Positions 1 through 57,483 of a stretch of DNA of 64,000 nucleotides are shown piece after piece. The notes under the pieces are model-generated. The model saw only the letters and a list, made by a program, of their open reading frames with translations, made no database searches and was not told where the DNA came from. Origin of the DNA: an uncultured virus (IMG/VR IMGVR_UViG_3300020727_000006) (taxonomy: Duplodnaviria > Heunggongvirae > Uroviricota > Caudoviricetes); IMG/VR virus record IMGVR_UViG_3300020727_000006; one strand, given 5' to 3'. Numbering within the stretch: the first letter of the stretch is position 1; each line of letters begins with the position of its first letter. The position numbers and the translations under genes are program-made.

Positions 1-3000
1 CCTCAATCATATCATATGGCGCAGTGCCATTGATTTTTACAACATTTTCACCGTCTTCATTTTCCAAGAAACCATCAACTGGACCAGACCCAAGTGGTGC
101 AACAGGCTTACGACGCTCTTGAGCAGTGCGTAATTCTTTTACAAGTTGTTCTTTGTCAATAGTGCCAGCAGTATATTTGGCAAACAATTGCATAGTGTTA
201 TCTTTTTCACTAATGCCGCCGCTTACAAACTTATACAATTTCTTTTGATATTCTTGGCGAGCATCTTCGGTATTAGCGGCTGCTCCCATAACACGAACAT
301 AGCGCAACATAGTCTTGCGAATTTCTTCGTATTGCTCAAAGTAATTACCGCCAGCACTACGGAACTCAATATAGTTTGGCTTGATGTTTACGCTAACATA
401 ACGGTCGCCACGAGGAACCAACAGTTTATTGATTTCTTTTTTGGCAATATCTTCCAATCCACCACGCATCTTATCAAGGATAGCAGGGATATTCTTTCTG
501 CCACTTCTGCCACGCACTTCACGCTTGGCTTGATCAAAACTACTCTTAGTCCATCGTGAACCAGCACGACCAAATGCTTTTAACACATACTCATCGCCAA
601 GCAACATGATTACTTTAAGATGGTCAATGTTTTCCATTGTTTGTAGTGGAATAGATACGCCAATATGGAAACCTGTTGTGCGGTTGGTATAATAATCATT
701 ACTCTTTGCCCAACTGAATACATTCTCTAACGCAGCCAACGCATCTTCTAGGTTCATTGGGGGTGATACAAGTTCAATACCACCATCTCCATCATTGTTT
801 GGACTATCAAGCGAACTATCTGGTTCAAATATCCAAGTTGTTTCATCACGGCTTGCTCCGTGATAACCGCCGCTTGCTCGTACCTTATAGCCAGTTGTGC
901 GTCTAAAATCATCAACGACATCGCCAATGTCTGTTGTTGGTTCTTCTCTACTGCTGCTAAATGTATAATGCGGCCAAGTTAGCGATTCACGAGTATTGCG
1001 ATTTACCCAACGCATCCAATCATACATATCACCAATGTTATTGCGATAAAGGAATTGACGCCAAATACCTTCTTCGTTTTCGCTCATCCAATTTTCACGA
1101 ACGCTGTCTTTGGCATCATCAAGTTCACGCTCACTTGCTTCGCCCATAGGCGTATCGCCTAATTCTTCTTGAATTGCATCTTTCCAATCGTCTGTATTTT
1201 CATAATTATCGTCATAATATTCAGATTGATAATCACTAAATGCTTCATAGAAAGATTCTAGCGCACTTTCAACATCACGGCGGGTATTGTGATCGCCAGC
1301 AAAAAAATCCATAACATCACGCTGACGATCACGATATGAAGCCGTGCCAGGAAAATCCTCATTGGCATCCATATCCTCTTCTTCTTCCTCTTCGCCTTCT
1401 TCGCCACCAAGACCAGGAATATACATTTCGGTTTCAAAGCCAACTTTCATACTCTTGGCAAATGGTGTATCGGCAAACTTTTCAAGAGATGTAGGACTCA
1501 TGTTGATTTCGTTTAGGATACTTTCTTCAAGGCTTTCTTCTCTGTTTGGAACTTCTCTTATATCCCAAGGTGCTGCTAAATTATGTTCATCAGCATAACT
1601 TACAGCATAGCGACGAGCACCAGTTAAACTTGCAGCGTTAAAGGTATGAACAACATGACCTTGATTATCTATAATATTATATGTTGTGCCATTTGTAGCA
1701 GTAATGTTAGAAGATGTGGCGGTTGCATTTGCTGAAATAGCATTGCCCGCAATATCATAACCACGATCTATTTCTAACTGTGAATATTGGCGAGGTGGTT
1801 CTGCTGCTGTTGGCTGTGAGGTTGGTATACCACGAATTAGTTGACCATTTAAGTCCCAGGTACTGTTATTTCCCGGCGATCTAATAGCAATATTAGCCAC
1901 ATCAATATGGTTCTGTTCTGCCCATCTTCTTGCGTTTTGTGATGCGCCATAAAAACCTGCTGCCTGAAATGATACTATTTCTCGACCATTACTTCTACTT
2001 ACGATACTATAAAGGGAATCACTTGATGCTGTTGCTGCTTGTGGCAATTGTAGTGCCTGTGTACCAGCACCAGGTATTGGTGTATTTGTGTCATCACTTG
2101 CAAGGGTTAGAAACCAATCAATATCACGATAACCGTATTCACGGGTCATACGAACAGCAATATCTCGTGCTTGCTCATCATTTGGCGCACGAAACTGTGT
2201 AACCGCCATTTGATTATTTGCTAAGCGAATCATATACATTGGTTGCATAGATAATACAGGTCGTTCACCGCCAATTGATAATGGTTGGCGTGTTAGAATA
2301 TCACCTGCTTGACCATCACGGGTATCTTTTAACGCAACTAAGTCAAATGAACGACCACTTGCTCGCACTATGCGTGCGGCAATATCATATACATCACTGT
2401 AAGTAATTCTTGGAGATACTACAAATTCTTGAATTACGCCACCAGTTATACGACTAATAATCTGGAATGTAATACCACCAATGCCATCGTAATCTACATG
2501 CGGTTCATCATCAGCCGCTTGTTTAGCATACGGATCACTTGACTGTGCTTTTGCTTTCTTAGCAAAATCACGCTTGCTTTGTGCATTTTTGATATAACTT
2601 ACAAGTGCTGTGCGAGGCATATTTCCAGTAGCAAACTGTGTAAAATACTTGATAGTATCGGTTTCGTCTTTTTTATCAGCAGTAAGTAGTTTTGCAAACT
2701 TCTTTTGATATTCTTTGCGTTCCATTTCTGGATGCAGCGCAATGTTCATAGCATATACGACACGAAGCAGCGTATTCACTACTTCATCGGTATCCATATC
2801 AATCCAATTGCCGCCTGGTGAACGAAACTCTACACGATTATCTTTTGTATTGATAGAGGTAAACTTGTCAGTATAACCATTGTGAATAAGTTTGGATGCT
2901 ACGGTATTCAAGTTCTTACGCATAGCATCAACGGCTTGGTCTGCCTTGCTTGGATTTTGTTTAATGAATGATGCAATCTGGTCAAAAGCACTGCGAGCAT

Positions 3001-4033
3001 AAGAATTACCAAGACGACCAAACTTTTCTAAAATATACTTGTCGCCTAAAAATAACGCAAGTTTAACATAGTCAAGTTTATCTAACTGATAACCTGGTAT
3101 AGAGATATTCATATGCAGACCAGTTTTATCATTGGTATAAGCATTGCCATCTTTTGCCCAAGCCTTGACCTTATTGATTTGGTCAATCATTGTTGGAATA
3201 TCAAGTGGTGGTGATACAAACTCTAAACCTTCGCCGCCTTTGCCACGAGTAGGTGATAGACTGCTATCTGGTTCAATAACATACGCATCATTTGGCTTTG
3301 TAATACCGTGATAAGAGCCGCTCTTAATAGTCTTCATGCCAACAGCACGACGGAAATCACCTACATCAACCGTAGAACGAGTTCTGCGATCATATTCATC
3401 AGGTTCTGTCCAGTGTGGCCAAGATAAAGAAAGAGCACCATCACTTGCCAAGTCATTCATGTAATTACCACCATAGGTATCTTCTAAAAATTTTTCCAGA
3501 TAATCGTCTATGTTATCATCATCTTCAATATTATCTACCCAAGTTTGGAAATATCTCTTTCTAAACTCTTCATATGGATCAATTTTTTCTATTTCACTGA
3601 ACAGTTCTTCTTGATTTTTATAATCACGACCATAGTTTTTGTCAATAAAATCTTGGATACGGTCACCAGCATAGGTATCCCATAGCGGACCATCAAGATA
3701 ATCGTGCCATGCTTGCTTCATAATATCGATTGCACGATTTACTTCACGACGGCTGTTATGATCGCCATAAAAGAATTGCATAACATCTTGTGCTAATGCG
3801 TTCCAACTCGCAGTAGATATACGCTCGTCCATATCATAATCTGGTTCGGATTCAAAGTCTTCATATGGATCATAATCATCGTCCTCTTCTTCTTCAAGAT
3901 TAGTGACGATAAGTTCAAATTCAAGACCTGCTTTTGCATTTGGAATCTTTGCCACTGCCGCACGAAGGGCTGCTGGCGACATGTTTACTTCGTTTAGGAT
4001 TTCTTCAAGGATCAGGTCTTTATCGTTTTTCAT
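1..4033 (-). CDS. Giant multidomain protein (at least 1344 aa, 3' end outside window) with two tandem putative amidoligase (COOH-NH2 ligase) domains
   Basis: ATG at 4033 gives MKNDKDLILEEILNEVNMSP...AGLEFE. Domain 1 has IEPDSSL, GLEFVSPP, TGLHMNIS, VEFRSPGG. Domain 2 is in the same frame (ATG at 1501: ILNEINMSP...VGFETE, FEPDSSL, IELVSPPM, TGFHIGVS, IEFRSAGG). The frame is still open at base 2, which explains its absence from the ORF track. Confidence 0.9.
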   Translation of the reverse strand, partial: MKNDKDLILEEILNEVNMSPAALRAAVAKIPNAKAGLEFELIVTNLEEEEDDDYDPYEDFESEPDYDMDERISTASWNALAQDVMQFFYGDHNSRREVNRAIDIMKQAWHDYLDGPLWDTYAGDRIQDFIDKNYGRDYKNQEELFSEIEKIDPYEEFRKRYFQTWVDNIEDDDNIDDYLEKFLEDTYGGNYMNDLASDGALSLSWPHWTEPDEYDRRTRSTVDVGDFRRAVGMKTIKSGSYHGITKPNDAYVIEPDSSLSPTRGKGGEGLEFVSPPLDIPTMIDQINKVKAWAKDGNAYTNDKTGLHMNISIPGYQLDKLDYVKLALFLGDKYILEKFGRLGNSYARSAFDQIASFIKQNPSKADQAVDAMRKNLNTVASKLIHNGYTDKFTSINTKDNRVEFRSPGGNWIDMDTDEVVNTLLRVVYAMNIALHPEMERKEYQKKFAKLLTADKKDETDTIKYFTQFATGNMPRTALVSYIKNAQSKRDFAKKAKAQSSDPYAKQAADDEPHVDYDGIGGITFQIISRITGGVIQEFVVSPRITYSDVYDIAARIVRASGRSFDLVALKDTRDGQAGDILTRQPLSIGGERPVLSMQPMYMIRLANNQMAVTQFRAPNDEQARDIAVRMTREYGYRDIDWFLTLASDDTNTPIPGAGTQALQLPQAATASSDSLYSIVSRSNGREIVSFQAAGFYGASQNARRWAEQNHIDVANIAIRSPGNNSTWDLNGQLIRGIPTSQPTAAEPPRQYSQLEIDRGYDIAGNAISANATATSSNITATNGTTYNIIDNQGHVVHTFNAASLTGARRYAVSYADEHNLAAPWDIREVPNREESLEESILNEINMSPTSLEKFADTPFAKSMKVGFETEMYIPGLGGEEGEEEEEEDMDANEDFPGTASYRDRQRDVMDFFAGDHNTRRDVESALESFYEAFSDYQSEYYDDNYENTDDWKDAIQEELGDTPMGEASERELDDAKDSVRENWMSENEEGIWRQFLYRNNIGDMYDWMRWVNRNTRESLTWPHYTFSSSREEPTTDIGDVVDDFRRTTGYKVRASGGYHGASRDETTWIFEPDSSLDSPNNDGDGGIELVSPPMNLEDALAALENVFSWAKSNDYYTNRTTGFHIGVSIPLQTMENIDHLKVIMLLGDEYVLKAFGRAGSRWTKSSFDQAKREVRGRSGRKNIPAILDKMRGGLEDIAKKEINKLLVPRGDRYVSVNIKPNYIEFRSAGGNYFEQYEEIRKTMLRYVRVMGAAANTEDARQEYQKKLYKFVSGGISEKDNTMQLFAKYTAGTIDKEQLVKELRTAQERRKPVAPLGSGPVDGFLENEDGENVVKINGTAPYDMIE

Positions 4034-4048
4034 TTATATATTTACCTG

Positions 4049-7000
4049 TTATTGTATCCATCCACCAGAAGCTGGCTTGTTTAAAAGTTGTGGTGGTAGA
4101 CTATGATCATCTGGTTCAATAAAAAAATCTTTAAGTTGATATCTTTCAGTTTTTACCCATGCTATTGCCCATTCAAGTGCTTTACTTGGTGATGTAAACT
4201 TTAACCCTTGTGGACCAAAATTGCTGCCATATGGTGGGTCACCTAGCCATATTCTATATACTTTATTCTTTGCATCTGCTGCTGCTTGTGCTTTATCTAC
4301 TTGACGCTTCTGCAAGCGCATTTTTAACACATTTTGGTCAATCAACCCGCTGGCATACATTGTAAAGTTAGTAAGTTGGTCATCGCCTTGTGGAATATGT
4401 TTAGCAATCATTGCATAAAGTTTTTTAGCATATTCTTCACGGTATGCTTGTGGGTCAGCCGCAATTGCCATTACTTGAACATACCGCAGCACAGTATTCT
4501 TGATGTCGTCTATATGTTCCATGAAGTTGCCGCCAGCACTGCGGAACTCAATGTAATTTCTTTTTATATTAACACTTACATAACGATCATTGTCCATTGA
4601 ACGATTTATAATTTCTTTTGCAACTTTTTCTAAGTTGATGCGCAGTTTTCTTGCATAGTCTTGTGATGTTGTTGCGCCGCCTCGTTTTTTAAATAACTTT
4701 TGTATTTGTGTAAACATGCTTTTAGTATATGCATTACTGCTGCGGTCAAATAGATTTAACACATACTGATCGCCAAGCAATATAATAACTTTTAGTGGGT
4801 CAACTTTTTCTTGTAAATCTTCTGGCAAACTAACTCCGACATGGAAACCAGTCGATGCATTACCATAATACCCATTTTGAGCAGCCCACATAAAAAATTT
4901 ATCTAGTGCTGCCATGCCTTGTTGCAGCGGCATTGGCGGTGAAACAAGTTCGATGCCGTTGTCATCGCCACTAATAGAACTATCTGGTTCAAGAATCCAA
5001 CTAATAGCATCGCGTTTTGCGCCATGGTATCCGCTACTAATTTTTGTTTTAAATCCGCTATATTCATTCCAATTCTTTGCAAGTTGCGCTATCGTTATCA
5101 CGCCACTAGGTTGCATATTTGGTTTTAAATAAGGGAACCATGCTCCGCCACCGCCGTATTCTGCATATTTTAAAACCCAATCGGATATGTTTTTAACATT
5201 TTCTGACTTTAGAAATTTTTTCCATTGCTTTTCATAATCTTCTGTGGAAAGTTCATTTATTGTTTTTGTAAAAAATATTGCTCGCGCCCGTGCACCCAAT
5301 CCATATGGATTGTTTGGTTCATCGGCAATTCTATCTCTTATCTCTCGCTGGCCTGACCAACCACTTCTGCGCCCGCCAAGATCGTCGTAGATTTTTTTAG
5401 CAATTACTTTTAAATTTTCTGGTTTCAGCATTTCATCAATCATGCTAGGATTTTTCTCAACTATATAATCAATGAATGACTGTTTCAAGGTCAATAAGTC
5501 ATCATTTATTGCTGACAAATCACTTTCATCAGTACCAGCATCCTTATACCAGTTTAAGACTTCATCTTGCCATGTTTTAGTAATTGGAAATCTGATATCT
5601 TTAGTCATGTCCCAATTTCTTGCATCTTGGCGAGGATCAGATTCATCGTCATCTTCATCTTCTAAACCAGGTACTAGCATTTCTGCTTCAAATCCAATAG
5701 TCATTGCTTGTGCTTGCGGAGTTGCGGCAAACTTTGCCAATGAACCAGGTGACATGTTTACTTCATCAAGCTCACCGACATAATCTACTTCGCTGCCGCC
5801 TGTATCTGGCTGAACCCAACGGTCCCAAGGAAAAACCGCTACCTGACGGTCAGGATAATCATTACCACCGCCCACCGTGCCAATAATGCTGCCAGCATGT
5901 TCACCAACAGAACTTGGACCAAGCAACTGCATAAATTTTGTTTTTTCTTGTGGCATGCTAAAATCATGACTTGAAGTTGCATTTCCTCTATTGCCATCAT
6001 AAACATCTACGGCAATATGTGGTCTTGATAGTGCAGATGCTGCATACACTCTATATAGTTTTTTAAGACTACCTAATGTTCCTTCTAGAAAAAATGTATT
6101 GGGAAGATTTACAAAACGAACATATCCTTGGGTAAATGCTTCTTCATATCCATCAATGTCGTTATCATAAAGCCATGACAGATGTTCTTCTGAACCAACA
6201 TATTCAACTTTTCGGTTAGGCAATATCCAACCATGTGTTTCATACTGGTCAAGTGCTTCTTCAATACTTTCTTTTTTGGCAGTGGCAGCACGGATTTTAG
6301 CAATAGCACTTTGTGCGGCATTATCACTCTTGGCTGGTTGTTGTGCCTCTGCATCCCACTTCTTATGCAAGAATGTCAGCAAATCTTTAATATCTTTGGC
6401 ACCAATCTTACGCATCGCAGCGATAATCTTAGTAGCAGTTTCATATCCACTATTGCCTGGCTTGCGAGCATTAGTAATTTCATTACGCAGTCCAAGGTCA
6501 TCAGCAAACTGACCGCCGTTCCAATAGGTTAAACTATAACGCAATTTATTTGCTTCTTTAGATAGCTCACTGCGGCTTTTCTTAAAGATAAGTTCCAACC
6601 AAGGAGCAAGATATTTCTTACCATTAAAGGTGCTTATATAACCTGTTTTCTTTTGACCACGAATTAACTCTTTAGCACTACTAACAGATATTGCTCGCTT
6701 TGTATCTTGTAATTTCCACGCATTTTCATTGCTATAAAGATAAGTTGGTAATCCGCGCTTCTTTGCCACAATCATCAATTGACGAGTGGTTGGACTTGCA
6801 AATTCACCTGCTTCTTTAAGCAAGATATGAATTGCTGTGATGGCATCTGCTGGTATAGATGGCTCACGAGAGAAAATACGGTCTTCACTTTCACTGTGCT
6901 TTTGCTTATCAAATCCTGCCCAATAATCAATTGCCTTCACAGGATAACGACGATTAAACCAATTGCCATCAAGATTAAACATAACGGCAGTGCCACCAGT

Positions 7001-9013
7001 AAACTCGTGATAGCCACCTACTTTGCTACGAGTAGTAGATAGAAAATAGTTATAACTTTTCGGCGCATACTGGTCTTCTACACTGCCAGTAGAAATGCTT
7101 AACATAAACTCATTGTTTTTAAGAATGTTTAATGCTGCACCCACACTGCCTGTATAATGGAACAACACTGGTGATGCTGCTTCGTCCAGACTTTCTGTTT
7201 CTTCTAAATCTTTACGATGACTACGCTTGTAATAACTGCACCAACCATTTGCCGCAATCTTGCCACTAACAGCCGAACAACCATGCGGAGGACGCCACAT
7301 AGTGCAGTGATCACAACGCTGACCATTGTGTGGCATAGCCTGATACTTTGCAACTGCTTTGGTTGACTTTTCTGCGGCTTCTTCAACTTTTCTTTTACTA
7401 ATTTCTTCAATATCACTATCGGGAACTAATCTTGCAGGTATACTATCTTTCTTAAGTGTTTTATAAGCCCAAAATCTATGATGCCCATCTAATACTTGAT
7501 ATCCACCTTTGTATTTGCGAACTAAAATAGGTGGTATATTTTCATTCTTCTTTAAACCATCTATAATTTTCGCAACATTTGCTTGGGCTTTTGGTAATTT
7601 CATCTTTTCATCTGGTTCAAACCCAACAAGTTCTTTCGTAGGAACATTAATTATAGGTAAACTGTCAAAACCGCTATCATCTACTTCTGCTCCAAAGTAA
7701 TCGGGATCAGTATAAAGTTTTACTTTGCCTTCTTTAACAGGATAAGTTGGCAATCCACGCAAATCAAGATTTGTGCCGTGTGTAGAGCCATAATAACCAT
7801 AAGGTTCTGTGATATCATGTTCTTCAAACTGTGCTGAATCAAAACCACGATTCCATAGCTTAGCTGCCTTGCTTCCAGTTTCATATGGATTTTGAGCACG
7901 AACATTCATACCATTAGTTTTAGATTTTAGTCCTGTAAGAAACCCTTCATGATATGGATCAGCATCACTTTCTGGTTCATTGCCCCATTCACCTTCAATG
8001 CCTGGCGCTTCTGTCATAATGCCCATTGCCTTCAACATAGCACGAGCAACTACACGATCTTTTTCTTTTTCTACTTCTGGCAACTGTGCATAAGTTTGTT
8101 GGGCAAGAGCATAACGCTTCTTTTTCTTATCGGGAATGGTTGGCGTATCTAACTGCAATTTGCCCATATAATCAGCCACGGCAGTCTTATTCCAACCATC
8201 GTGAATGGCACCAGCAATTGCTTCTACATCAGTAATACCACTAACAATCATACGCTTGGCAGCAGTGGCACTTTCAATATTTGCTAACCAACCAAAGTTA
8301 GCACCTGGTGTTGATAGACCATAATGATAGGCATCATCTAATGCCTTATCGCTAATGTGTGCAAGTTGTTCTACTGATAAACTTTCGGTAATAATGCTTT
8401 CATTGACAGATTCATTTTCGAGCGGGTCTTCTGGTAGATTAAGACCTAAACGCACGGTTTGGAATAGCGTTTTACCATCAACGACGAGGTTTTGTGGAAC
8501 TTGGGTTGCTCTTTCAAAGGCATCTGGGTCACCGTCTTTTGCTGCTTGTCTGGCATTTGTTGCATTTAGAATTCTTGGTGATTCCATAAAACTAAATGGT
8601 TCAAACTTATAAAAACCTTGTTCCATTTGCTTGCCATTATAATCTTCTAATAACTTGCGTAGTTGTGGCATATCATCTTCACCAGCAACAAAAGTTGCAC
8701 TACGAAATCCCTTTTCATAAAGATAAACTGCTGCTTGCATAATGGTTCTTATATTTGGATCAACTACAAGATGGTTTTTTGTTTCTGGATATAATGCATG
8801 TAACCATTTTACTTTTTGGTCGTAGGTAAGTGGATTTTTTTTACTATCGTGTGTTTTTGTCACAAATATTGCCCAAGCACCTGCTTTTGCTGTTGCCTTG
8901 ACAGTGTTAATAACTCCCATATGACCTCTGTGGGGCGGCTGCATGCGTCCCCAACAAAAACTAATGTGTGGATTAGGGGCTTCTGTAAATACAGTTCTGT
9001 GGCTCAAAGTCAT
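4049..9013 (-). CDS. 1654-aa multidomain (poly)protein: cytidylyltransferase-like, RyR-like, RMF-like, ParB/Srx, HiPIP, ART-like, unknown and amidoligase modules
   Basis: GRMQPPHRGH (HxGH); YAQLPEVEKEKDR; YHEGF..NPY..WNRGF; PPILV..VLDGHHR; CDHC..C..GWC; FHYT..STTRS..ESEDR; IGFEAE..EPDSS..ELVSPP..TGFHVGVS..IEFRSAGG. Confidence 0.85.
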   Translation of the reverse strand: MTLSHRTVFTEAPNPHISFCWGRMQPPHRGHMGVINTVKATAKAGAWAIFVTKTHDSKKNPLTYDQKVKWLHALYPETKNHLVVDPNIRTIMQAAVYLYEKGFRSATFVAGEDDMPQLRKLLEDYNGKQMEQGFYKFEPFSFMESPRILNATNARQAAKDGDPDAFERATQVPQNLVVDGKTLFQTVRLGLNLPEDPLENESVNESIITESLSVEQLAHISDKALDDAYHYGLSTPGANFGWLANIESATAAKRMIVSGITDVEAIAGAIHDGWNKTAVADYMGKLQLDTPTIPDKKKKRYALAQQTYAQLPEVEKEKDRVVARAMLKAMGIMTEAPGIEGEWGNEPESDADPYHEGFLTGLKSKTNGMNVRAQNPYETGSKAAKLWNRGFDSAQFEEHDITEPYGYYGSTHGTNLDLRGLPTYPVKEGKVKLYTDPDYFGAEVDDSGFDSLPIINVPTKELVGFEPDEKMKLPKAQANVAKIIDGLKKNENIPPILVRKYKGGYQVLDGHHRFWAYKTLKKDSIPARLVPDSDIEEISKRKVEEAAEKSTKAVAKYQAMPHNGQRCDHCTMWRPPHGCSAVSGKIAANGWCSYYKRSHRKDLEETESLDEAASPVLFHYTGSVGAALNILKNNEFMLSISTGSVEDQYAPKSYNYFLSTTRSKVGGYHEFTGGTAVMFNLDGNWFNRRYPVKAIDYWAGFDKQKHSESEDRIFSREPSIPADAITAIHILLKEAGEFASPTTRQLMIVAKKRGLPTYLYSNENAWKLQDTKRAISVSSAKELIRGQKKTGYISTFNGKKYLAPWLELIFKKSRSELSKEANKLRYSLTYWNGGQFADDLGLRNEITNARKPGNSGYETATKIIAAMRKIGAKDIKDLLTFLHKKWDAEAQQPAKSDNAAQSAIAKIRAATAKKESIEEALDQYETHGWILPNRKVEYVGSEEHLSWLYDNDIDGYEEAFTQGYVRFVNLPNTFFLEGTLGSLKKLYRVYAASALSRPHIAVDVYDGNRGNATSSHDFSMPQEKTKFMQLLGPSSVGEHAGSIIGTVGGGNDYPDRQVAVFPWDRWVQPDTGGSEVDYVGELDEVNMSPGSLAKFAATPQAQAMTIGFEAEMLVPGLEDEDDDESDPRQDARNWDMTKDIRFPITKTWQDEVLNWYKDAGTDESDLSAINDDLLTLKQSFIDYIVEKNPSMIDEMLKPENLKVIAKKIYDDLGGRRSGWSGQREIRDRIADEPNNPYGLGARARAIFFTKTINELSTEDYEKQWKKFLKSENVKNISDWVLKYAEYGGGGAWFPYLKPNMQPSGVITIAQLAKNWNEYSGFKTKISSGYHGAKRDAISWILEPDSSISGDDNGIELVSPPMPLQQGMAALDKFFMWAAQNGYYGNASTGFHVGVSLPEDLQEKVDPLKVIILLGDQYVLNLFDRSSNAYTKSMFTQIQKLFKKRGGATTSQDYARKLRINLEKVAKEIINRSMDNDRYVSVNIKRNYIEFRSAGGNFMEHIDDIKNTVLRYVQVMAIAADPQAYREEYAKKLYAMIAKHIPQGDDQLTNFTMYASGLIDQNVLKMRLQKRQVDKAQAAADAKNKVYRIWLGDPPYGSNFGPQGLKFTSPSKALEWAIAWVKTERYQLKDFFIEPDDHSLPPQLLNKPASGGWIQ

Positions 9014-9043
9014 TATGTTATCCAGATAAATTATTTATCTGAA

Positions 9044-9694
9044 TTATACTTGACGATTTCTTTGTCGCAATGTCTCTGCAATTCTTGCTTTTAATTCCGC
9101 TGCTTTTTCTGGCCCATGTATTTCTTCAAATGTTTTTCCTTTTAATGCTTTACTAATATTTGCACGGTATTCATCTGATCTTGGTGGTTTTGATTTTCCT
9201 ATGTTTGCAGCACGAAGTTTTTCACGAGTTTCTTCTGAACGAGGTTTTCCTATTTTAGCAAGTCTTGCTGCTTCTGTATGTTCTTTTGGTCTTTTAATTC
9301 CATACATTGAGTTATTTTTTCCAGAAGTTAATATTGATAATTCTATTTTAATATATTCATAAACTCTGCCATGCGGTTTATATCTTCCAATATGTTTATC
9401 ATTTTTTCCTAAAAGATTAATAACTGCAAAACTCATTTTTTGTTTAAATTTTCCAAAAGTAATCTTTGTTAATAAACGATGGCAAATCCAATGCTCTCTT
9501 GCCGTCAATAAAACTTTATTCCATGATTCTTTTTTGTATTCTGGAAACCAACATTTTGGCAGTATATGATGTGCTTCATAATACACACCATTATTTTTCT
9601 TGCGATTTTGTAATTGTGCTGCTACAATAATAGCATAATACCAATGGGTATATTTGTTATCCAGAAACTGGTTCTGGTGGCTATAAATATTCAT
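9044..9694 (-). CDS. HNH homing endonuclease with NUMOD3-like repeats
   Basis: EAHHILPKC...NKVLLTAREHWICHRLL; C-terminal KPRSEETREKL / RSDEYRANIS repeats. Confidence 0.85.
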   Translation of the reverse strand: MNIYSHQNQFLDNKYTHWYYAIIVAAQLQNRKKNNGVYYEAHHILPKCWFPEYKKESWNKVLLTAREHWICHRLLTKITFGKFKQKMSFAVINLLGKNDKHIGRYKPHGRVYEYIKIELSILTSGKNNSMYGIKRPKEHTEAARLAKIGKPRSEETREKLRAANIGKSKPPRSDEYRANISKALKGKTFEEIHGPEKAAELKARIAETLRQRNRQV

Positions 9695-9760
9695 GCTGTT
9701 GCTCCAATAAGCGATAGAGTAGGCAGGATTGCAGTCCGTGGTCTACACTATTATTTATCA
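9692..9760 (-). promoter_or_regulatory. Late promoter (ATAAATA) plus structured two-hairpin leader of the HNH gene
   Basis: TGATAAATAATAGT-GTAGAC-CAC-GGA-CTGCAA-TCC-T-GCCTAC-TCTAT-C-GCT-TATTGG-AGC-AACAGC-ATG; second copy at 43450. Confidence 0.7.
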
Positions 9761-9762
9761 TT

Positions 9763-10890
9763 TTAATTGGGCGTCCAGCGGTGTCTTGGAACTAATTTTA
9801 TATTTGGTTGACCAAATTGAACATAGCCCTCACCACCAGGAACTCCACGGGTTGATTGCTGTATGTCTGAAGATTCTTTATCAATTTGGTCAATAATTTG
9901 ATTCTTGACTGTGCGAAGATTCTCTAGTGTAGCAAAGGTTGCAATAAAACCTTTTTGGTTTTGCTTAATCCAGTCGCTAATCTTTGCTTGCATTGGTCCG
10001 CTTTGTTTGCTGCTACTGTTTAACCAGTTTACAAACTCACTGGCAAGATCGCTTGTTCTTCCAACTCTTGCCATTTGATTATTAAAGTTATAAAGAACGC
10101 CTTTAAACCCTGCCATTTTCATAGCAGCAAGGCGGTCATCGTCCAAGAAGTTATCAATTACATTTTTGTTTGCAGCAATATACTTTTGTAAGTCTTGTAA
10201 CTTTTTTGTATCTACTTTTATAGGCTGTTGTGCATATCGTGGACCTAACACAATCAATCCTTGTGTTTGATTAAATTTAGTGAAGTCATCTATTGGTTGC
10301 TGTTGATCATCGCCCATGCCAAACTGTGGAAAATAAGCATGTCCAACAACTGCTGCAGTTGCTTTTGAAATGCGCTGCCCAAGTTCAGTTGTTGCTGGTA
10401 CGCTATATGTTACATTGTTTGGTGTAAAGGTATATGAATCATTTTCCATTTGTGGGCGGCGCATAAACAACAAATCACCATATACATAACCACGAAAATC
10501 TTTAGGAGTGGCTGCTTCAAATAGCGCCCATAGACTAGCATACTCGTTTGCAAAACGCATACGCTCATCTTCTTTGTCTGGCGTTACATTGCCAGTGCTC
10601 ATAATAAATTTTACAAGTTCTTGTGGACTGCGGCTTTTTCCGCTGCCGTTTGGTTTTAACCAACCGTTGTGTCCAACCATGATAAAACTGCCATCTGGTT
10701 CGCGGCCCCAATATACTTGAGGTTTTCCATCCCATTTCCAACGAATTTGAGTTGGGCTACGAGCAAGATCACTAAGGCGACTAGCTGCAGTCTCTGCTCC
10801 AGCACTGCCACTGATGAGCACAAGGTCTTCTACATGCTGAAATGCACGACCAACTTTTGGGGCTTCGTTAATAATTTGGTTTATAAACAT
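9763..10890 (-). CDS. Ligase-superfamily nucleotidyltransferase-like protein (KWDG type)
   Basis: Motif I-like KWDGKP, GDL, and C-terminal EGYV...KLV; starts MFINQIINE. Confidence 0.6.
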   Translation of the reverse strand: MFINQIINEAPKVGRAFQHVEDLVLISGSAGAETAASRLSDLARSPTQIRWKWDGKPQVYWGREPDGSFIMVGHNGWLKPNGSGKSRSPQELVKFIMSTGNVTPDKEDERMRFANEYASLWALFEAATPKDFRGYVYGDLLFMRRPQMENDSYTFTPNNVTYSVPATTELGQRISKATAAVVGHAYFPQFGMGDDQQQPIDDFTKFNQTQGLIVLGPRYAQQPIKVDTKKLQDLQKYIAANKNVIDNFLDDDRLAAMKMAGFKGVLYNFNNQMARVGRTSDLASEFVNWLNSSSKQSGPMQAKISDWIKQNQKGFIATFATLENLRTVKNQIIDQIDKESSDIQQSTRGVPGGEGYVQFGQPNIKLVPRHRWTPN

Positions 10891-16095: not shown

Positions 16096-16101
16096 ATTAT
16101 T

Positions 16102-16129
16102 AATATAACAGATTTCTATTGTTTGTCAA
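16102..16129 (-). promoter_or_regulatory. Sigma70-like early promoter, representative of a family
   Basis: TTGACA-N16-TATATT; same spacing at 45279-45306(-), 57470-57497(-), 58799-58826(-) and 58841-58868(+). Confidence 0.7.
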
Positions 16130-16998
16130 GTATTTATAGGACGAATTTTTTGAATTTCTTTGATTAAATTTAACTGGTCGGTTGTTAGAGCAGTTGGTAT
16201 CATGATATTGATCTTGGCTATGTATTTGCCTCTACCAGCGTTATGGTTTCTAGGAAAACCTTCGTCTGTAATGCCAAACTGCGATTGGTGCTGCGTTCCT
16301 GGCGGAACATATAACTCTATTGTTCTGCCGCTTGGTAATTGTACAGTAAGTGTATGCCCAATAATTGCTTGGAAACAATCAATGGTTATGTCTTCAATGA
16401 TGTTTTCGCCATTTCTGAAAAACCTGTTATGTGGCTTTACTCGTATAGCTACTTCAAGGTTTCCACGAGGGATGCCAATATTTAAATCATCACCGCGATT
16501 GGCAACAGTAAAAACTGTGCCACTATCAACGCCACTAGGAATCTCAATCTGCAGTGTTTCTGTTGTATTTGAAGTTTTATATTCTAGAACTTTAACCTGC
16601 GAATTGAGTGTTTCTAAAAAATCTAGTTCAACTGTTAATCTGATATTACGATTGCGCTGTGGTTGACGAGTGTGAAACCCAAAATGTTGAAAAATTTGTT
16701 CATGTATGTTTGGAAATGGATCGCCAGCATTAAAATTAAAATTAAATTCAAATGGATTGCCGCCGCCAGAATGTTGTGCATGTGGGCTATACTGTGGTTG
16801 AGGATTGCGCAGCATATGGTCATAATGTGCACGAGCGTTTTGATCACTTAGTGTACTATATGCCTCGTTAATCTGCTGAAACTTAGCCTGATCACCGCCC
16901 ATATCTGGGTGATGTTGTTTAGCAAGGCTTCTAAAAGCAGCCTTTAATTCTTCGGGGCTAGCACTTTCCGCTACGCCAAGTGTTTGATAATGACTCAT
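16126..16998 (-). CDS. DnaJ/CbpA-like co-chaperone
   Basis: J-domain with HPD, G/F-rich linker, DnaJ C-terminal domain, no Zn fingers. Confidence 0.9.
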   Translation of the reverse strand: MSHYQTLGVAESASPEELKAAFRSLAKQHHPDMGGDQAKFQQINEAYSTLSDQNARAHYDHMLRNPQPQYSPHAQHSGGGNPFEFNFNFNAGDPFPNIHEQIFQHFGFHTRQPQRNRNIRLTVELDFLETLNSQVKVLEYKTSNTTETLQIEIPSGVDSGTVFTVANRGDDLNIGIPRGNLEVAIRVKPHNRFFRNGENIIEDITIDCFQAIIGHTLTVQLPSGRTIELYVPPGTQHQSQFGITDEGFPRNHNAGRGKYIAKINIMIPTALTTDQLNLIKEIQKIRPINT

Positions 16999-18433: not shown

Positions 18434-18954
18434 TAGATAATTCCACTTAGTTTTTTGATAGTTTCTATTTCATTATTTAGTTTCTTGGTCTCTTCAGTTA
18501 TTCTCTCGAATTGTGTAACATCCTGTTCATATTTTTCAGGAGTCATTGGAACAACTTTAGTAAAATTTTCTTCATTCATTTGCATATAATCACTACTTTT
18601 ATACCAACGAAACTTCCACTTGTCTGGTTTAATTCCAGTCAAATGATCAAGGTCAGTTAGCATTTCACTGATATATTTGTAAAGATTTGGTCTGCGTTGC
18701 GCTTCAACAAACACTAAGCGATTCATGTCGGAGATTTCGCCAGTACTTACATCTGCGTCTAATACCCAATCATAGCCGTTTTCTAAGAAACTAACTAAAT
18801 CAGTTGCTGGCATAATATCACGAATTTTAAAACTCAATGTAACAACATCCTGTGGTTGTCCCATCTTGCTGTTATACTCATCAATATGAATTGTATCGCT
18901 GACCAAGTAGTTAAGGTCGCCCATTTGTAAACCTTCAGAAAGTTGGCGCTGCAC
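18433..18954 (-). CDS. Hypothetical protein
   Basis: Likely GTG start after AAGGAG, giving MQRQLSEGL... Confidence 0.6.
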   Translation of the reverse strand: MQRQLSEGLQMGDLNYLVSDTIHIDEYNSKMGQPQDVVTLSFKIRDIMPATDLVSFLENGYDWVLDADVSTGEISDMNRLVFVEAQRRPNLYKYISEMLTDLDHLTGIKPDKWKFRWYKSSDYMQMNEENFTKVVPMTPEKYEQDVTQFERITEETKKLNNEIETIKKLSGII

Positions 18955-19531
18955 TTTGCTGTACTCCTTGTTCTGCTGGCGGTTGGCCTTGTTGACCGCC
19001 TTGTTCTGGTGGTTGACCACTCGATTGTTCTGCTCCATTTGTAGTGGTGCTTTGGTCTGTTAATCCTTTTTCCATACTGCTTTGTAGATCGGCTAAATCA
19101 ACTTCTTCGCCAGCAATATCTACTGAACCTTGCTTAATATCGCTCATAAGTTTTTTTGGTAACATCATTTCAACATACCAAACTGGAAAATCAACTAGTT
19201 TTCCTTTGTGACTGCCTGGGCGTATATCAGCGGGACTTCTAATTTGCACTGGCATTTGTACTGTGTCTTTTTTGTATGCTACTTTTGCGCCAAATGGTAT
19301 TATTCTTTTTGCAGCAGCAGGGTCGGGCATACGATCACGAGGCCACATAAATTTACACTTAACCCAATAACGGCTAATAACTGGACCTTCAACTAACTCT
19401 CCTAAACGCCAGTTTGGGAAAGCATAGAAATCCATGTTATCTAATACTCTTTCAAAATCACATAGCATGCTAAGACTAGCATCGCTCATGTAAATTTTCT
19501 TAACGCTTTCAATATTTGCTTTAATGCTCAT
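18935..19531 (-). CDS. Hypothetical protein with Q-rich tail
   Basis: Start MSIKANIE downstream of ATAAATA and AAGG. Confidence 0.7.
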   Translation of the reverse strand: MSIKANIESVKKIYMSDASLSMLCDFERVLDNMDFYAFPNWRLGELVEGPVISRYWVKCKFMWPRDRMPDPAAAKRIIPFGAKVAYKKDTVQMPVQIRSPADIRPGSHKGKLVDFPVWYVEMMLPKKLMSDIKQGSVDIAGEEVDLADLQSSMEKGLTDQSTTTNGAEQSSGQPPEQGGQQGQPPAEQGVQQSAAPTF

Positions 19532-19642
19532 AGCAACACCTTTGAGATATTTATGATTGTAGACATGCATTATAGATATCGTTTTAATTACTTAAACGAG
19601 TCATTAAATACTTTTGAGTTACAACCAACTCAGGGAATAAAC

Positions 19643-30861: not shown

Positions 30862-31416
30862 TTACTCTACATAGTAATATGTTAGAGTGTCTGTGTTAAA
30901 TTTTATTTTTCCTTTTTTATATAGATCAAAAACAAGAAGTTCAATTTGAGCGTGGCATTTATTATGTTCTTGAACTGAACATAAAAATAAATTATCTATA
31001 CTATTATTTTTTTTATCTCCATCTATATGATGAACAACCATACCTTTTGGTATTCTTTTTTTAATGTGATTTTCCATCACGACAATATGTTCTCTAACCC
31101 ACAATCCTCTGTTATATGGATACTCTGGACCAACATATATTTCTTTATATCCTTCATTGGGGCGCTCTCCCTTTTCTTTTGCTTTTTTTAATTTTTCTTT
31201 GACTGTTAATTTTTGACTTAAAGAAAATTTTGGACAATTATTACAATAGTGGGTATCTGTTTTAACTTTTAACTTTCCATCTTTTTCTCTTGTAAACTCT
31301 TGTTCACAATTATTACATTTAAAATGTAAAAAAGTTTTTGTTCTTTTAATTTTTACTATTTTTCCCCGTCTGTTTTCATCGTGAATATTTTCTATTTTGC
31401 GTTCGTAAAGAAACAT
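30862..31416 (-). CDS. HNH homing endonuclease
   Basis: CxxC pairs; EH.VME; VHHIDGDKKNNSIDNL..H...H. Confidence 0.88.
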   Translation of the reverse strand: MFLYERKIENIHDENRRGKIVKIKRTKTFLHFKCNNCEQEFTREKDGKLKVKTDTHYCNNCPKFSLSQKLTVKEKLKKAKEKGERPNEGYKEIYVGPEYPYNRGLWVREHIVVMENHIKKRIPKGMVVHHIDGDKKNNSIDNLFLCSVQEHNKCHAQIELLVFDLYKKGKIKFNTDTLTYYYVE

Positions 31417-33616: not shown

Positions 33617-34042
33617 TTATTTTGAATGATTACGAAGTGCAGTAGTCAATTGACTTGGCGGTATTTGATTCATTTTATAACCATCATATACATGCTTTAG
33701 ATATTTCTGGGAAGGTTGTCTGCGTTCATCACCGTGCAATATCATAACATATGTAAGTGCTTTATATAATTTGCCTTTGTATAGCACTTCAATGACGGCA
33801 TGGTGGTAATCTTTACCGTCGCCTTCATAATAGTCTAACTGTTTTAGACCTTCATCACTCATTGCCCATAGCACACCATAGGTTTTTTCACCATCTGCCG
33901 CTACCATGTTAGTATAATGATTTAATTGTAACTGTTGATTTGGCGCAACTGCACGACCAATGCGCTTGGCATCTGGCACACGATTTTTTAATTCAGGAAT
34001 GTTTGTGTTATGCCCATAAGCAAAGTATAGAATGCGTTCCAT
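33617..34042 (-). CDS. Gamma-glutamylcyclotransferase (GGCT/AIG2-like)
   Basis: YFAYG, GVLW, LDYYEG, PSQKYL. Confidence 0.85.
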   Translation of the reverse strand: MERILYFAYGHNTNIPELKNRVPDAKRIGRAVAPNQQLQLNHYTNMVAADGEKTYGVLWAMSDEGLKQLDYYEGDGKDYHHAVIEVLYKGKLYKALTYVMILHGDERRQPSQKYLKHVYDGYKMNQIPPSQLTTALRNHSK

Positions 34043-34113: not shown

Positions 34114-34947
34114 TTAGTCGTTGCCTGGATCGCCCTTGCAAAGAGTCTTCTTTGCAGCAGCAACTGCCTTAAAGTCTACTGGCCATAGAGCAGGCTTTGC
34201 CTTCTTATCAGCGCCAGCAGGAAGAGGAATAGTCAAACCGCTTGCAGCTTCAACATCAGCCACACTAACCTGAACCTTAGTTAGGTCATTGCCCTGATTC
34301 TCAGCCTGTGGGAATAGGAACGCATAAACTTCCTTAGTCTGGGTATCAACTACAATCTTCCACATCTTGTTTGGAACTGTTACCTTGTTAGCACCGATTG
34401 TCTTATCCTTGCCAACTGTATAAATGTTGCCAGCATAGATGAGAAGTGTATGATTGCGTGAGAATGTCCATGCACCTGTTGAACCTTCAAGCAACTTCCA
34501 GATACCACGATTAAGACCTGGCAACTGGGGTGACATGTTACTCATCAAGAATGATTCATATTCAACTTGCTGATCCCATGACTGATGAGCATCATTGGCG
34601 ATATGTCCCTGATCATAGCCGCTAGCAGCATAATCGCTTGGCGCACTACGCTTGTCAGCAGGAAGAGCAGCATCAGCAACGAACGCATTAGAACGGGCTA
34701 CGCAGCCATTAACATGCTGTGGAGTGATTTCCCATGCTGCCCATAGTGGTTCCTTAGCAGCATTGTCATGCTGTACATAATAACCCTGACGGCAAAGTGG
34801 GGTAGTATCGTGTTTTTGTGTATCAGTAATCTTGCCATAAGGCATGAACGCAGCACAGACAGCATCTGGCTGATTTGGACGCTGATTCCAAGCATAAGCA
34901 AGAGTTGGAACCATAAGTGCGAGTAGAACTAGTAAAATCTTTTTCAT
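34114..34947 (-). CDS. Secreted DNA/RNA non-specific endonuclease (NucA/EndoG family)
   Basis: Signal peptide ending AYA; DQGH; SNMSPQ..LNRG.W..LE. Confidence 0.9.
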   Translation of the reverse strand: MKKILLVLLALMVPTLAYAWNQRPNQPDAVCAAFMPYGKITDTQKHDTTPLCRQGYYVQHDNAAKEPLWAAWEITPQHVNGCVARSNAFVADAALPADKRSAPSDYAASGYDQGHIANDAHQSWDQQVEYESFLMSNMSPQLPGLNRGIWKLLEGSTGAWTFSRNHTLLIYAGNIYTVGKDKTIGANKVTVPNKMWKIVVDTQTKEVYAFLFPQAENQGNDLTKVQVSVADVEAASGLTIPLPAGADKKAKPALWPVDFKAVAAAKKTLCKGDPGND

Positions 34948-40767: not shown

Positions 40768-41940
40768 TTATAAATTATCCTTTGAGCATTGTGGACACAG
40801 TAGTTTCTGTGTCATATCTAATTTATCTGGCTCACCAAACCTATTATGCGCTTCCCATACTGGTTCCATCTTGTGATAAGAATAGTGCCAGCCTTGTAGT
40901 TGCTTAAATCGTTCTTCGGTTACTGTTGCTGCACTATTAAATTGTGCCATTGTAAGATCATTTCTTGTTGCAGTATCGTTTTCTTGTTGTCTTTCGCATA
41001 TGTGTTCTTCCTGATGATCACACGCATCGCATTGCAGCGTAAGAACATAGGTTTTTAAAACAAAAGTTTTAAGAGGCATTTGCTTTTACCACTGCAATAG
41101 AACGCCAATCTGTATTTTCATCTAACACCACACTATTCACGGTATCGCTGTTTTTGCTCAATAGATTATGCAGAACTCTTGCTGCATCGCCACGAACGCC
41201 ATAACAATTTTTATCACAACGATATACAGAACCACTCGCACCATAGAATAGCCAATGATTGCTCTCTTCACCCACAGCAGTGATACCACTGTTCATGCGC
41301 CAAGCATCGCCATCCAGATAGCCACCACTCCAACCTGCCAAAACTTTATTATAAGTTTGACCGTTGTTAGTGATATTCACTACTACCCAATTATGCGGTG
41401 TGTAATCATAACTCATCTCATTGCAATCCAAAGTGTTTGCGGATAGTCTTATCAATTCTACGCTTGTATTGTTCGTCAGTAAATTGCTGTGGAAACAGTG
41501 ATGCACATTCCTGAATAATCAACTGCGCAAACTTTACAACATCTTCTTGTTCGGCATGTCCATTGATGAAGTAGTGCCTTGGTGTTTCATGATCTATATA
41601 GTTCAATAGTCCCGCATCAAGTGCGAGTTCTTTAATTCGCTCGTTCATCATCCCAATTCTCCCAACACTCATTCGCATCGTCCCAATGACGATCATCATA
41701 TAATTTAATACTAACATAGAACCACAGAATTGTCAAGTCAAATTGTGGACCAGCGTGGTCACGACCAAACCACCAAGTGTCAAGATTGATGCTAAAAAAT
41801 TCATCTAAACCGCTCCAAAATGAAACTTGTAATTCCAAGTTTTTATGTTTGGTAATGCGATAACTCCGTAAAAACTTATCACGAGTAACTACCCAAGACT
41901 TGGCAAATGGATTGCCTATCCGTAAATGAAATCCTATCAT
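40768..41940 (-). CDS. Run of four small coupled hypothetical ORFs
   Basis: Track ORFs ending at 40768, 41069, 41418 and 41632; the first has CxxC pairs. Confidence 0.55.
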
Positions 41941-43386: not shown

Positions 43387-43449
43387 GTTTTAATCCATTG
43401 AAATCCTACTATTAAGATAGCATAAATTTCAAGATTGTCAAGAGAAAAA

Positions 43450-43522
43450 TGATAAATAATAATGTCAGCCACGATGCTACCAACATCCGCTGACTCTATG
43501 ATTGTAAAGGAATCACAGCATG
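43450..43522 (+). promoter_or_regulatory. Late promoter plus structured two-hairpin leader of the GIY-YIG gene
   Basis: TGATAAATAATAAT-GTCAGC-CAC-GATG-CTACCAA-CATC-C-GCTGAC-TCTAT-GATT-GTAAAGG-AATC-ACAGC-ATG. Confidence 0.7.
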
Positions 43523-44107
43523 TATATTTACATCTATAAAATCACAAATAAATTAAACAATAAAGAATATATCGGTGTCCATTCAACCCTTGATTTAGAT
43601 GATGGGTATATGGGGTCTGGTAATTTAATTATAGCAGCAATTAAAAAATATGGCAAAGAAAACTTCACAAAAGAAATCCTTCAATATTTTAATTCGCCCA
43701 AAGAAGCATTTGCTGCTGAAAGAAATATTGTAAATGAATCATATATCCAATCGGAAAATACTTACAATATCAATTTAGGTGGATCAGCACCACCAAATAT
43801 GGCAGGTATTCCAAGAACAGAAGAAACAAAAAATAAGATTTCATCTACAAGAAAAGAAAGAAACATATATCCAACAGCAGGCATAGAAGCATCTCGCATA
43901 GCAAATACTGGCAAAGAACCAGCAAACAAAGGCAAAAAAGCAAATGCAAAATCAATTGAAAAGAGAACAGAAACAAGAAAACTAATCAAGTTTCTATTCT
44001 CTCAACAACGATATGATGAACTTTTGTCTTTATCATTAAAGCCCACCAGTAGAAAACGCATCCGTGAAAAAATCAACCTTCTTCAATCGTCTGCCCAATC
44101 CACTTAA
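43520..44107 (+). CDS. GIY-YIG (Seg-like) homing endonuclease
   Basis: YIYKITN..YIG, GYMGSG, E..YN; NUMOD3-like RTEETKNKIS. Confidence 0.9.
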   Translation: MYIYIYKITNKLNNKEYIGVHSTLDLDDGYMGSGNLIIAAIKKYGKENFTKEILQYFNSPKEAFAAERNIVNESYIQSENTYNINLGGSAPPNMAGIPRTEETKNKISSTRKERNIYPTAGIEASRIANTGKEPANKGKKANAKSIEKRTETRKLIKFLFSQQRYDELLSLSLKPTSRKRIREKINLLQSSAQST

Positions 44108-45254: not shown

Positions 45255-45315
45255 TGGTCCTACTCCTGTTTATAACTTAATATAACACAGATTTAGGCGT
45301 TGTCAAGTATTATTT

Positions 45316-45780: not shown

Positions 45781-45786
45781 GTCCAT

Positions 45787-57440: not shown

Positions 57441-57483
57441 GGGTAAATCTCTCCATTGCTTATATTATCAATATAACACGATT

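Follow-up and report, generated by a model that had tools for sequence, protein, structure and literature searches.

What does it mean that two unrelated homing endonuclease genes of one phage begin behind the same structured leader, and on which strand does that leader act? The question is raised by a 64,000-nucleotide stretch of DNA (the window, hereafter) from an uncultured virus of the Caudoviricetes (IMG/VR record IMGVR_UViG_3300020727_000006), in which an open reading frame (ORF) for an HNH/NUMOD3 nuclease and another for a GIY-YIG nuclease are each headed by a short element holding a late-type promoter motif, two potential hairpins, a Shine-Dalgarno (SD) sequence, and the start codon. 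Among the selfish genes of large phages, homing endonucleases predominate, and, to our knowledge, their restraint is known for only a few T-even cases, each with a hairpin of its own. The comparative analysis described here places both leaders in one covarying family and suggests that they may well be a portable, two-way cassette of ~80 bp that gives rise to antisense or outward RNA. Judged from sequence patterns, RNA of this kind is more likely to be what the structure serves than a plain leader of the nuclease messenger RNA (mRNA).

A leader family shared by unrelated nuclease genes

Copy A of the element (9762..9692, minus) terminates in the ATG start codon of the HNH/NUMOD3 homing-endonuclease ORF (9044-9694, minus), and copy B (43448..43522, plus) in that of a SegE-like GIY-YIG homing-endonuclease ORF (43520-44107, plus), both ORFs having been assigned using Pfam and PHROGs. 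An earlier note on this DNA, made from the sequence alone, had placed leaders at these two sites, and the placement held when coordinates and strands were re-read, as did the common architecture that had been described: TGATAAATAATA, stem 1, CAC, stem 2, a loop, stem 2′, stem 1′, TCTAT, a small hairpin at the SD, ACAGC, and ATG. The likeness between the two copies extends beyond the ATG, up to a TATTTAY motif located 6 nucleotides (nt) after ACAG in both; with this facing motif included, the element spans 9683-9758 (minus) and 43452-43531 (plus), or ~80 bases.

In copy A, the late-promoter-like ATAAATA of the nuclease strand occupies 9752..9758 (minus), 5 nt before stem 1, and its complement forms the U-rich tail of the fold on the antisense strand. 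It is followed by hairpin B (9719..9746, minus), namely, stems 1 and 2 of the earlier note, which reads GTAGAC-CAC-GGA-CTGCAA-TCC-T-GCCTAC, and by hairpin A (9696..9717, minus), which joins the former stem 3 to CTAT/ACAG and contains the SD GGAG at 9702-9705; on the plus strand, the loop of hairpin A presents the anti-SD. A second ATAAATA, on the opposite strand (9683..9689, plus), lies within codons 2-4 of the HNH ORF and points toward the leader, making it a candidate antisense late promoter. The corresponding parts of copy B, given here on the plus strand, are ATAAATA at 43452..43458, hairpin B at 43464..43494 (GTCAGC-CAC-GATG-CTACCAA-CATC-C-GCTGAC), hairpin A at 43496..43518 (CTAT-GATT-GTAAAGG-AATC-ACAG) with the SD AAGGA at 43507-43511, and TATTTAC at 43525..43531, 6 nt after ACAG. 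The last of these reads GTAAATA on the minus strand and is a candidate either for an antisense promoter or for one strand of a long-range helix.

Taken alone, the leading 12-mer is not beyond chance in the window (two matches versus 2.0 expected, with 60 of 100 shuffles reaching two). The significance comes from the whole element: a covariance model, R1, built from 21 copies (alignment A1), scored copy A at 84.2 bits and copy B at 76.1 bits, with the next match in the window at 12.2 bits (E 3.9, filters off). Since R1 finds nothing else above 12.2 bits, the other nuclease genes of the window (30862-31416, 55367-56077, 54157-54828, and 34114-34947) lack the element, in agreement with the earlier observation that the remaining endonuclease genes carry no such leader.

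Relatives were gathered by pattern scans of viral and metagenome contigs, in which CCACG and CTCTAT were demanded and the stems were left unconstrained. The first 69 distinct pattern matches comprised 40 with a paired stem 1, which were kept, and 29 that were dropped as chance; two loose collection scans returned mostly chance matches among the matches listed, and only the rows with a paired stem 1 were retained. After later scans and model matches, 49 distinct copies had been assembled in all, which answers the earlier call for further homologues, to be sought with a covariance model and across phage contigs. Two copies (L422 and L423, record G002) were found by R1 only. In these, the first C of CCACG is replaced by T with a compensating change in the 3′ arm, indicating that the first base of CCACG belongs to stem 1.

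All ORFs behind the copies, as far as they were read, look like homing endonucleases. In a Pfam scan of the ORFs of 17 relatives, 14 matched NUMOD3, GIY-YIG, HNH, SegE, or the I-TevI DNA-binding domain at E<=0.01 (12 of these above the curated cut-off), and the three without a Pfam match display GIY-YIG or HNH motifs by eye; with the two window genes added, 16 of 19 scanned ORFs match nuclease families. For the copies found later, the first codons of the ORFs were read. The same leader thus precedes HNH ORFs, several GIY-YIG types, and ORFs with an I-TevI-type DNA-binding domain.

R1 had no match in the T4-like phage Acj61 and none in records G006 (518 kb) and G007. In Acinetobacter phage Acj61, the region upstream of the GIY-YIG gene Acj61p142 (L418, 1120-1205) reads TATAAATA and then ...GCCAC...CTCTAT..., a loose resemblance to the cassette in short words, with no hairpins and no R1 match. 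The Rfam scan that the earlier note had proposed left the family without a known relative at gathering score: permissive scans of both leader regions against Rfam 15 returned nothing below E 0.28, all matches falling far under the gathering scores. No description of the cassette was found in the literature searched (supplements excluded).

The strand that carries the fold

Covariation between the stems, previously proposed from the two window copies, was confirmed on the relatives found by patterns without stem constraint. In a plain MAFFT alignment of 21 sequences (A1), both partners vary at 11 of 15 pairs, and pairing is kept in 90.8% of cells, compared with 32.5-53.4% when partners are slid. 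In a second, model-fitted alignment of 47 distinct rows (A2), which leans toward the model structure because it was fitted to the model, 91.9% of 700 cells are paired, compared with 30.5-45.4% when partners are slid, and 180 cells are compensatory versus 56.9 in shuffles, with none of 500 shuffles reaching as high. The statement that the stems of the two window copies differ yet keep pairing is therefore borne out by the relatives but does not hold to the last pair in copy A, where stem 1 (GTAGAC/GCCTAC) contains an A.C mismatch that becomes G.U on the plus strand; relatives read GTAGGC at the position of GTAGAC.

The mismatches of this type are distributed unevenly between the strands. Over the 15 model pairs, the sense strand (that of the nuclease gene) has 640 Watson-Crick cells, 44 A.C, 3 G.U, and 13 others. 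Stem 1 in 40 copies has 231 Watson-Crick, 9 A.C, and no G.U cells, and the small SD hairpin, in which the script scored A.C and G.U alike, has 164 Watson-Crick, 20 A.C, and 1 G.U. The A.C departures of the sense strand are therefore wobble (G.U) pairs on the opposite strand. For instance, the A.C within CTAT/ACAG is G.U in all 34 antisense rows, and the pair closing the loop of hairpin B is U.G in 22 and U-A in 8 of these 34 rows. Some of the A.C positions are conserved and hence are not fresh or transient mutations.

The antisense strand also yields the fold without prior structure. From 34 of the 49 distinct copies (six of the L023 type, which has a different 3′ half, near-duplicates, and the marginal L342 being omitted), RNAalifold predicted two hairpins de novo on the antisense strand. 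In this alignment, 97.7% of 645 cells pair, compared with 27.8-48.0% when slid; 12 of 19 pairs show compensatory changes, and stem 1 pairs in 100% of cells. With ViennaRNA, the antisense strand was more stable in 46 of 46 copies (mean of -18.6 versus -13.1 kcal/mol). The sense fold of copy A is no better than shuffles (z +0.44), and that of copy B has a z of -2.2.

The A.C versus G.U pattern indicates that selection acts on the fold of the antisense strand, and two earlier interpretations change. Several of the bases that had been regarded as conserved and unpaired are otherwise accounted for, as the 12-mer holds the promoter motif, and TCTAT, ACAGC, and the loop ends (C...AA) pair on the opposite strand. 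The description of the element as a structured leader of the nuclease mRNA is not supported as stated, given the 44 A.C and 3 G.U cells of the sense strand, and the mRNA leader reading is probably wrong as to the strand. In that reading, a 5′-terminal stabilizing hairpin and a small hairpin half-burying the SD would throttle translation of the nuclease, as a variant of the hairpins that sequester the ribosome-binding site of T-even nuclease genes. Such a sense-mRNA regulator is considered improbable, although the same helices are possible on the sense strand at the 91.9% of paired cells given above, nearly all copies have the SD in the 3′ portion of the small hairpin's loop and in its 3′ arm, the late start predicted from the fixed 5-nt gap would coincide with the first base of stem 1, copy B has a sense fold below the shuffles, and a precedent has been described in T-even phages (PMC2988022). 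Set against these points are the conserved A.C positions, a sense fold that is the weaker one in every copy compared, and the expectation that, unlike for I-TevI, the late transcript would hold the whole SD hairpin, such that no early/late switch would result. The weaker sense fold that half-buries the SD is a possible second layer of control.

Facing promoter motifs and a putative antisense RNA

The segment TGATAAATAATA includes ATAAATA, the T4-late-like promoter motif of the window phage. This motif occurs 18 times in the window, counting both strands, and 14 occurrences lie 8-60 nt upstream of a listed co-oriented start, a zone comprising 3.9% of strand positions; the remaining ones are located before an in-frame ATG inside the ORF at 18935-19570, in the two leaders, and antisense within the HNH ORF. 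The last of these (9683-9689, plus) is the sole ATAAATA among the 18 that faces no ORF. Related late promoters have been proposed in other phages, namely, ATAAATA in the jumbo phages CBB and GAP32 (PMC5259590) and NATAAATA in T4-like cyanophages (PMC2984593).

Throughout the wider set of copies, the spacing from ATAAATA to CCACG is fixed at 10 nt, and the 5 nt separating ATAAATA from stem 1 are fixed in length and variable in sequence. In a scan left unconstrained for the promoter, the 24 distinct rows with a full stem 1 contained ATAAATA in register (20), ATAAATA shifted by one base (1), CTAAATA (2), or no such motif (1). A putative late promoter is thus found directly upstream of the nuclease ORF, as in the T-even type of control. 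In T4, the late motif is located at -13 to -6 relative to the transcription start, and, by this rule, sense transcription would begin at the first base (G) of stem 1.

On the other side of the start codon, 42 of 49 copies contain TATTTA at a distance of 6-10 nt after ACAG (exactly 6 nt in 24). Relative to the start codon, each of the three reading frames is represented (24, 14, and 2 copies), and the motif is therefore a nucleotide-level element rather than a coding constraint; an explanation of TATTTAY as encoding the 'IY' of GIY-YIG was rejected on the same ground. A possible role for TATTTAY is that of a late promoter on the opposite strand, facing the first one. In copy A, two late-type motifs face each other ~75 nt apart, and each of the facing promoters is predicted to start transcription at the base of the distal hairpin.

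TTGTCA, a 17-nt spacer, and AATAAT upstream of copy B suggest a sigma70 promoter for the nuclease, but this candidate was rejected as a part of the element because TTGTCAAG complements the -35 box CTTGACAA of minus-strand genes and because its distance to the cassette varies. In the window, TTGTCAAG was found 14 times versus 3.3 expected, with 13 of the 14 on the plus strand. The early-type promoter consensus at minus-strand gene starts consists of CTTGACAA, ~14 nt, and TGnTATATT (e.g., 16096-16140, 45255-45310, 57441-57480, and 43387-43441).

Read on the strand opposite the nuclease gene, the element runs 5′-(CAU)UG, hairpin A, one A, hairpin B, and a tail of A-Y-U-W-U-U-A-U-U-U-A-U. Hairpin A has a stem of 8-9 bp, formed by CUGU and 3-5 variable pairs and including an invariant G.U, and a loop containing the anti-SD (CCUU/CUCC). 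Hairpin B consists of 6 bp, a 1-nt A/G bulge opposite a GUG internal loop, both left unpaired in this fold, and a further 4-6 bp. At least five U within the 8 nt after hairpin B are present in 49 of 49 copies on the antisense strand and in 14 of 49 on the sense strand, and an intrinsic terminator acting on the sense strand for the upstream gene was rejected given that count. Two other candidates were also set aside: a pseudoknot between the loop and ACAGCA, for which the loops contain no consistent complement (by eye), and mimicry of an anticodon loop by hairpin B, whose loop length ranges from 4 to 7 nt.

In the proposed mechanism, the cassette would arrive together with a free-standing homing-endonuclease ORF and, on the gene strand, would supply its T4-late-type promoter (ATAAATA), SD, and start codon, with the conserved secondary structure being selected on the strand opposite the nuclease gene. 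An (R)TAAATA promoter, provided by TATTTAY in the first nuclease codons, would fire toward the leader, and the same segment would be covered by host transcription that runs through the nuclease gene in the antisense direction. Either source would yield a structured RNA fully complementary to the leader, SD, and AUG of the nuclease mRNA, and the pairing, probably begun loop to loop at the SD and anti-SD, would restrain translation of the nuclease, much as translation is held down by RNA-OUT in IS10 and by art200 in IS200. Hairpin B and the U-rich tail would stop or attenuate the antisense RNA, which, where a neighboring gene follows directly, may double as the leader of that gene.

Several points weigh against this mechanism. 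The timing logic of T4 is inapplicable because both promoters would be late. On the opposite strand, TATTTAY often gives GTAAATA rather than ATAAATA, and it is missing in 7 of 49 copies; alternatively, in a read-through antisense RNA, it could form a helix over a long distance with the complement of the sense ATAAATA; every combination observed at the end positions would be a pair on the antisense strand (A-U, G.U, U.G), but only one lineage covaries. The A.C counts are cells and not events, ~15 independent events having been estimated by eye, and a DNA-level hairpin on the antisense strand would give the same wobble signature. The U-rich tail is interrupted by A, and its proximal 5 nt vary. 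In ~8 loci, the neighboring ORF starts 8-41 nt after the tail, with its SD following directly and no room for a sigma70 promoter, implying that hairpin B is no strong terminator there. Finally, divergent members are under-sampled because the collecting patterns required CCACG and CTCTAT.

A bolder version of the antisense mechanism, which is regarded as a long shot, is that the cassettes are a family of small antisense RNAs acting as specificity-coded brakes on homing endonucleases, which a resident phage may also use in trans against the corresponding nuclease of a co-infecting relative. If this were true, each stem and loop variant would couple one antisense RNA to its cognate nuclease mRNA, and several nucleases per genome could be throttled independently. 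It would amount to RNA immunity or incompatibility among selfish genes, like that of plasmid copy-control RNAs, and the covariation would stem partly from diversifying selection, besides drift under structural constraint.

Insertion sites, neighboring genes, and related systems

The boundaries of the inserted unit are visible at the site of copy A. Among 45 loci containing a homologue of its upstream gene (9763-10890), 24 are empty, the stop codon, ~20 nt, and CAGATAAATAtTTTATCTGG leading into the next large gene. In three others, a plain late promoter lacking the cassette precedes an ORF that looks GIY-YIG-like by eye, and the remaining loci contain other genes. In the window, the cassette and the HNH ORF fill exactly the interval from the stop of 9763-10890 (plus 2 nt) to the late promoter of the gene at 4049-9013. 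Locus L297 has the cassette at the same site with a different (GIY-YIG-like) ORF, and L270 has the entire leader of copy A, except for the stem-1 G/A, before a GIY-YIG-like ORF in place of the HNH ORF of the window. The exact fill, together with L297 and L270, indicates that the cassette belongs to the inserted unit and that ORFs have been exchanged behind it. Thus, the earlier suggestion of a functional element with covarying stems that moves as a cassette irrespective of nuclease family is supported by the variety of ORFs behind the leader, by L270 and L297, and by the 24 empty sites among 45 loci. The site after the homologues of 9763-10890 is in itself an insertion hot spot that holds nothing, a GIY-YIG-like ORF, or another ORF (L438, L462/L463, and L436/L440/L466).

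Exchange of this kind is also what would be expected if the hairpins acted as DNA, namely, as extruded or single-stranded hot spots of recombination or nicking that move ORFs and have no RNA function. G.T is the most tolerated mismatch in DNA hairpins too, and the strand signature would fit. The swapping of ORFs behind one leader (copy A versus L270, and L297 at the same site) points in the same direction, and recombination at PeSLs, the promoter(early)/stem-loop terminator cassettes of T4-type phages, offers a precedent (PMC2839356, PMC4122927). This explanation is nonetheless held to be very improbable: homologous recombination requires no fold, conserved loops, or bulges; the fixed spacing to flanking promoter motifs and the anti-SD loop point to expression; and no recombinase is associated with the cassette.

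At the site of copy B, the nuclease gene is antisense to both neighbors and overlaps the RNA ligase gene (44073-45254) at their 3′ ends. In relatives, the next ORF directly adjoins the RNA ligase gene (TAATG overlap), and, in L480, a homologue of 43108-43386 begins 38 nt beyond the RNA ligase gene, with neither nuclease nor promoter. In the window, by comparison, the gene at 43108-43386 is faced by a sigma70-like promoter (43414..43441, minus; TTGACA, 16 nt, TG-extended TATCTT) that begins 10 nt behind the U-rich tail of the cassette. The layout of L480 therefore shows that an operon was interrupted by the insertion and has since come to hold a promoter behind the cassette. Over 46 copies, the nuclease is antisense to both neighbors in 22, co-oriented in 5, and mixed in 7, with the neighbor unknown in 12 (a tally in which copy A was mis-scored owing to a spurious ORF). 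At least 14 loci, among them that of copy B, have a TTGACW -35 box 2-33 nt past the tail, outside the conserved core.

These neighborhoods bring up another explanation, in which the antisense structure would be a PeSL-like insulator for the neighboring phage genes, brought in by the insertion, with any effect on the nuclease being incidental: hairpin B and the tail would attenuate host transcripts arriving in antisense from the nuclease gene, and an outward late promoter and a structured 5′ end would restore or stabilize expression of the next host gene. The excess of antisense over co-oriented insertions, the -35 boxes beyond the tail, the ~8 loci in which the SD of the neighbor follows directly, and the broken operon seen by comparison with L480 are all consistent with an insulator, as are descriptions of T4 nuclease genes that can carry promoters for downstream host genes (PMC2988022) and of PeSLs as composite terminator/promoter cassettes that mediate shuffling (PMC2839356, PMC4122927). 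It is still thought unlikely to be the main function, given that the cassette and TATTTAY are retained in co-oriented settings, in which the antisense strand has no host gene downstream (copy A, L254, L270, L318, L297, and L319), that the sigma70 box is outside the conserved core at a variable distance, and that an insulator needs neither the anti-SD loop of hairpin A nor the invariant flanks.

With antisense or outward RNA as the preferred product of the cassette, several known systems can be compared. As described in PMC2988022, nuclease genes of T-even phages and Aeh1 (I-TevI, I-TevII, I-TevIII, segB, and mobE, with a hairpin also at seg43(25)) combine a late promoter with a hairpin that sequesters the ribosome-binding site. 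The cassette resembles these in having a T4-type late promoter before the nuclease ORF, hairpins around the SD, and a presumed low level of nuclease. In the T-even accounts, however, the hairpins are individual and form no sequence family, whereas the cassette is one covarying family before unrelated ORFs; and a late start inside the T4 hairpin frees the ribosome-binding site, whereas the start predicted here lies at the base of hairpin B, leaving the SD hairpin complete in the late transcript. Moreover, the T-even fold is one of the mRNA strand, whereas that of the cassette fits the opposite strand.

The closest systems in logic appear to be the small RNAs of insertion sequences, namely, IS10 RNA-OUT and the cis-antisense RNA art200 of IS200 (PMC4513863). 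According to the published accounts, these, like the RNA proposed here, are small structured RNAs opposite the 5′ untranslated region and start of a mobile nuclease or transposase gene that block ribosome binding, with mRNA structure adding a second layer of repression. The cassette differs in its phage host and its homing-endonuclease gene, in that its antisense RNA is predicted from sequence, in its two facing T4-late-like promoters ~75 nt apart, and in a terminator-like tail that overlaps the sense promoter.

As portable cassettes, the closest appear to be the PeSLs, described as short (~100 bp) conserved regulatory cassettes that flank accessory genes, carry their own signals, and serve as exchange points (PMC2839356, PMC4122927). 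Those described have a sigma70 consensus promoter and a stem-loop with G/C tracts and flank ORFans; in the family described here, the motifs are of the late type, two hairpins have conserved bulges, nucleases alone are headed, and a sigma70 box is an optional neighbor that is not in the core. An antisense RNA to a nuclease gene has been found experimentally in a T4-like phage: CfrI, of ~225 nt, lies opposite a homing-endonuclease gene and psbA in cyanophage S-PM2 (Millard 2010, via PMC2984593). CfrI is set apart by its description there, being longer, linking the nuclease to psbA, and not being described as a repeated portable cassette.

The window itself belongs to a large phage, with a ClpA/Lon-like ATPase, PhoH, a clamp loader, RNA ligase 1, polynucleotide kinase, and amidoligase fusion proteins; four transfer RNAs are its only Rfam matches. 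Its closest protein matches (41-45% identity) are to jumbo phages such as Atu_ph07 and PA5oct. Related contigs are 43-86 kb in length with a completeness rating of 13-24%, and the one complete relative is 338 kb. In megablast, 2 kb around copy A had no match among cultured phages, and blastn of copy B gave three weak records (E 0.3), none of which covers the leader.

Other features of the window were observed in passing. Two very large minus-strand ORFs, 2-4033 (>1344 aa) and 4049-9013 (1654 aa), contain amidoligase-type domains, the latter also matching cytidylyltransferase and ParB-like domains and, weakly, HIPIP. In front of the 1654-aa gene, the late promoter (9014-9045, minus) is located within a conserved small palindrome, CAGATAAATA(A/T)TTTATCTGG, as in 24 related loci (L424-L452), such that the promoter motif itself lies in hairpin-capable sequence. 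The region 41418-43117 (minus) contains at least six tandem overlapping small ORFs (68-105 aa) with similar 3′ ends (...gaagat..ttatt...gcgGTG/ATG), which suggests a paralogous array with translational coupling. By PHROG match, the kinase-like and phosphatase-like halves of polynucleotide kinase are two ORFs (57484-57954 and 58180-58629, minus) with a 116-aa ORF between them, representing either a split gene or two genes. Two genes are gamma-glutamyl cyclotransferase-like (33617-34042 and 45316-45786).

This study identified one conserved, portable RNA-structure cassette that, in dozens of contigs from uncultured large phages, precedes nuclease ORFs belonging to two or more unrelated catalytic families; its evolution points to the strand opposite the nuclease gene. 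If the cassette does give rise to an antisense RNA, it would represent the first RNA family in phages that is devoted to controlling nucleases and would tie phage nucleases to the antisense logic of insertion sequences. It would then also provide an annotation marker for nuclease insertions and late promoters in jumbo-phage metagenomes, and would constitute a compact natural module consisting of two facing promoters, two hairpins, and a terminator-like tail.

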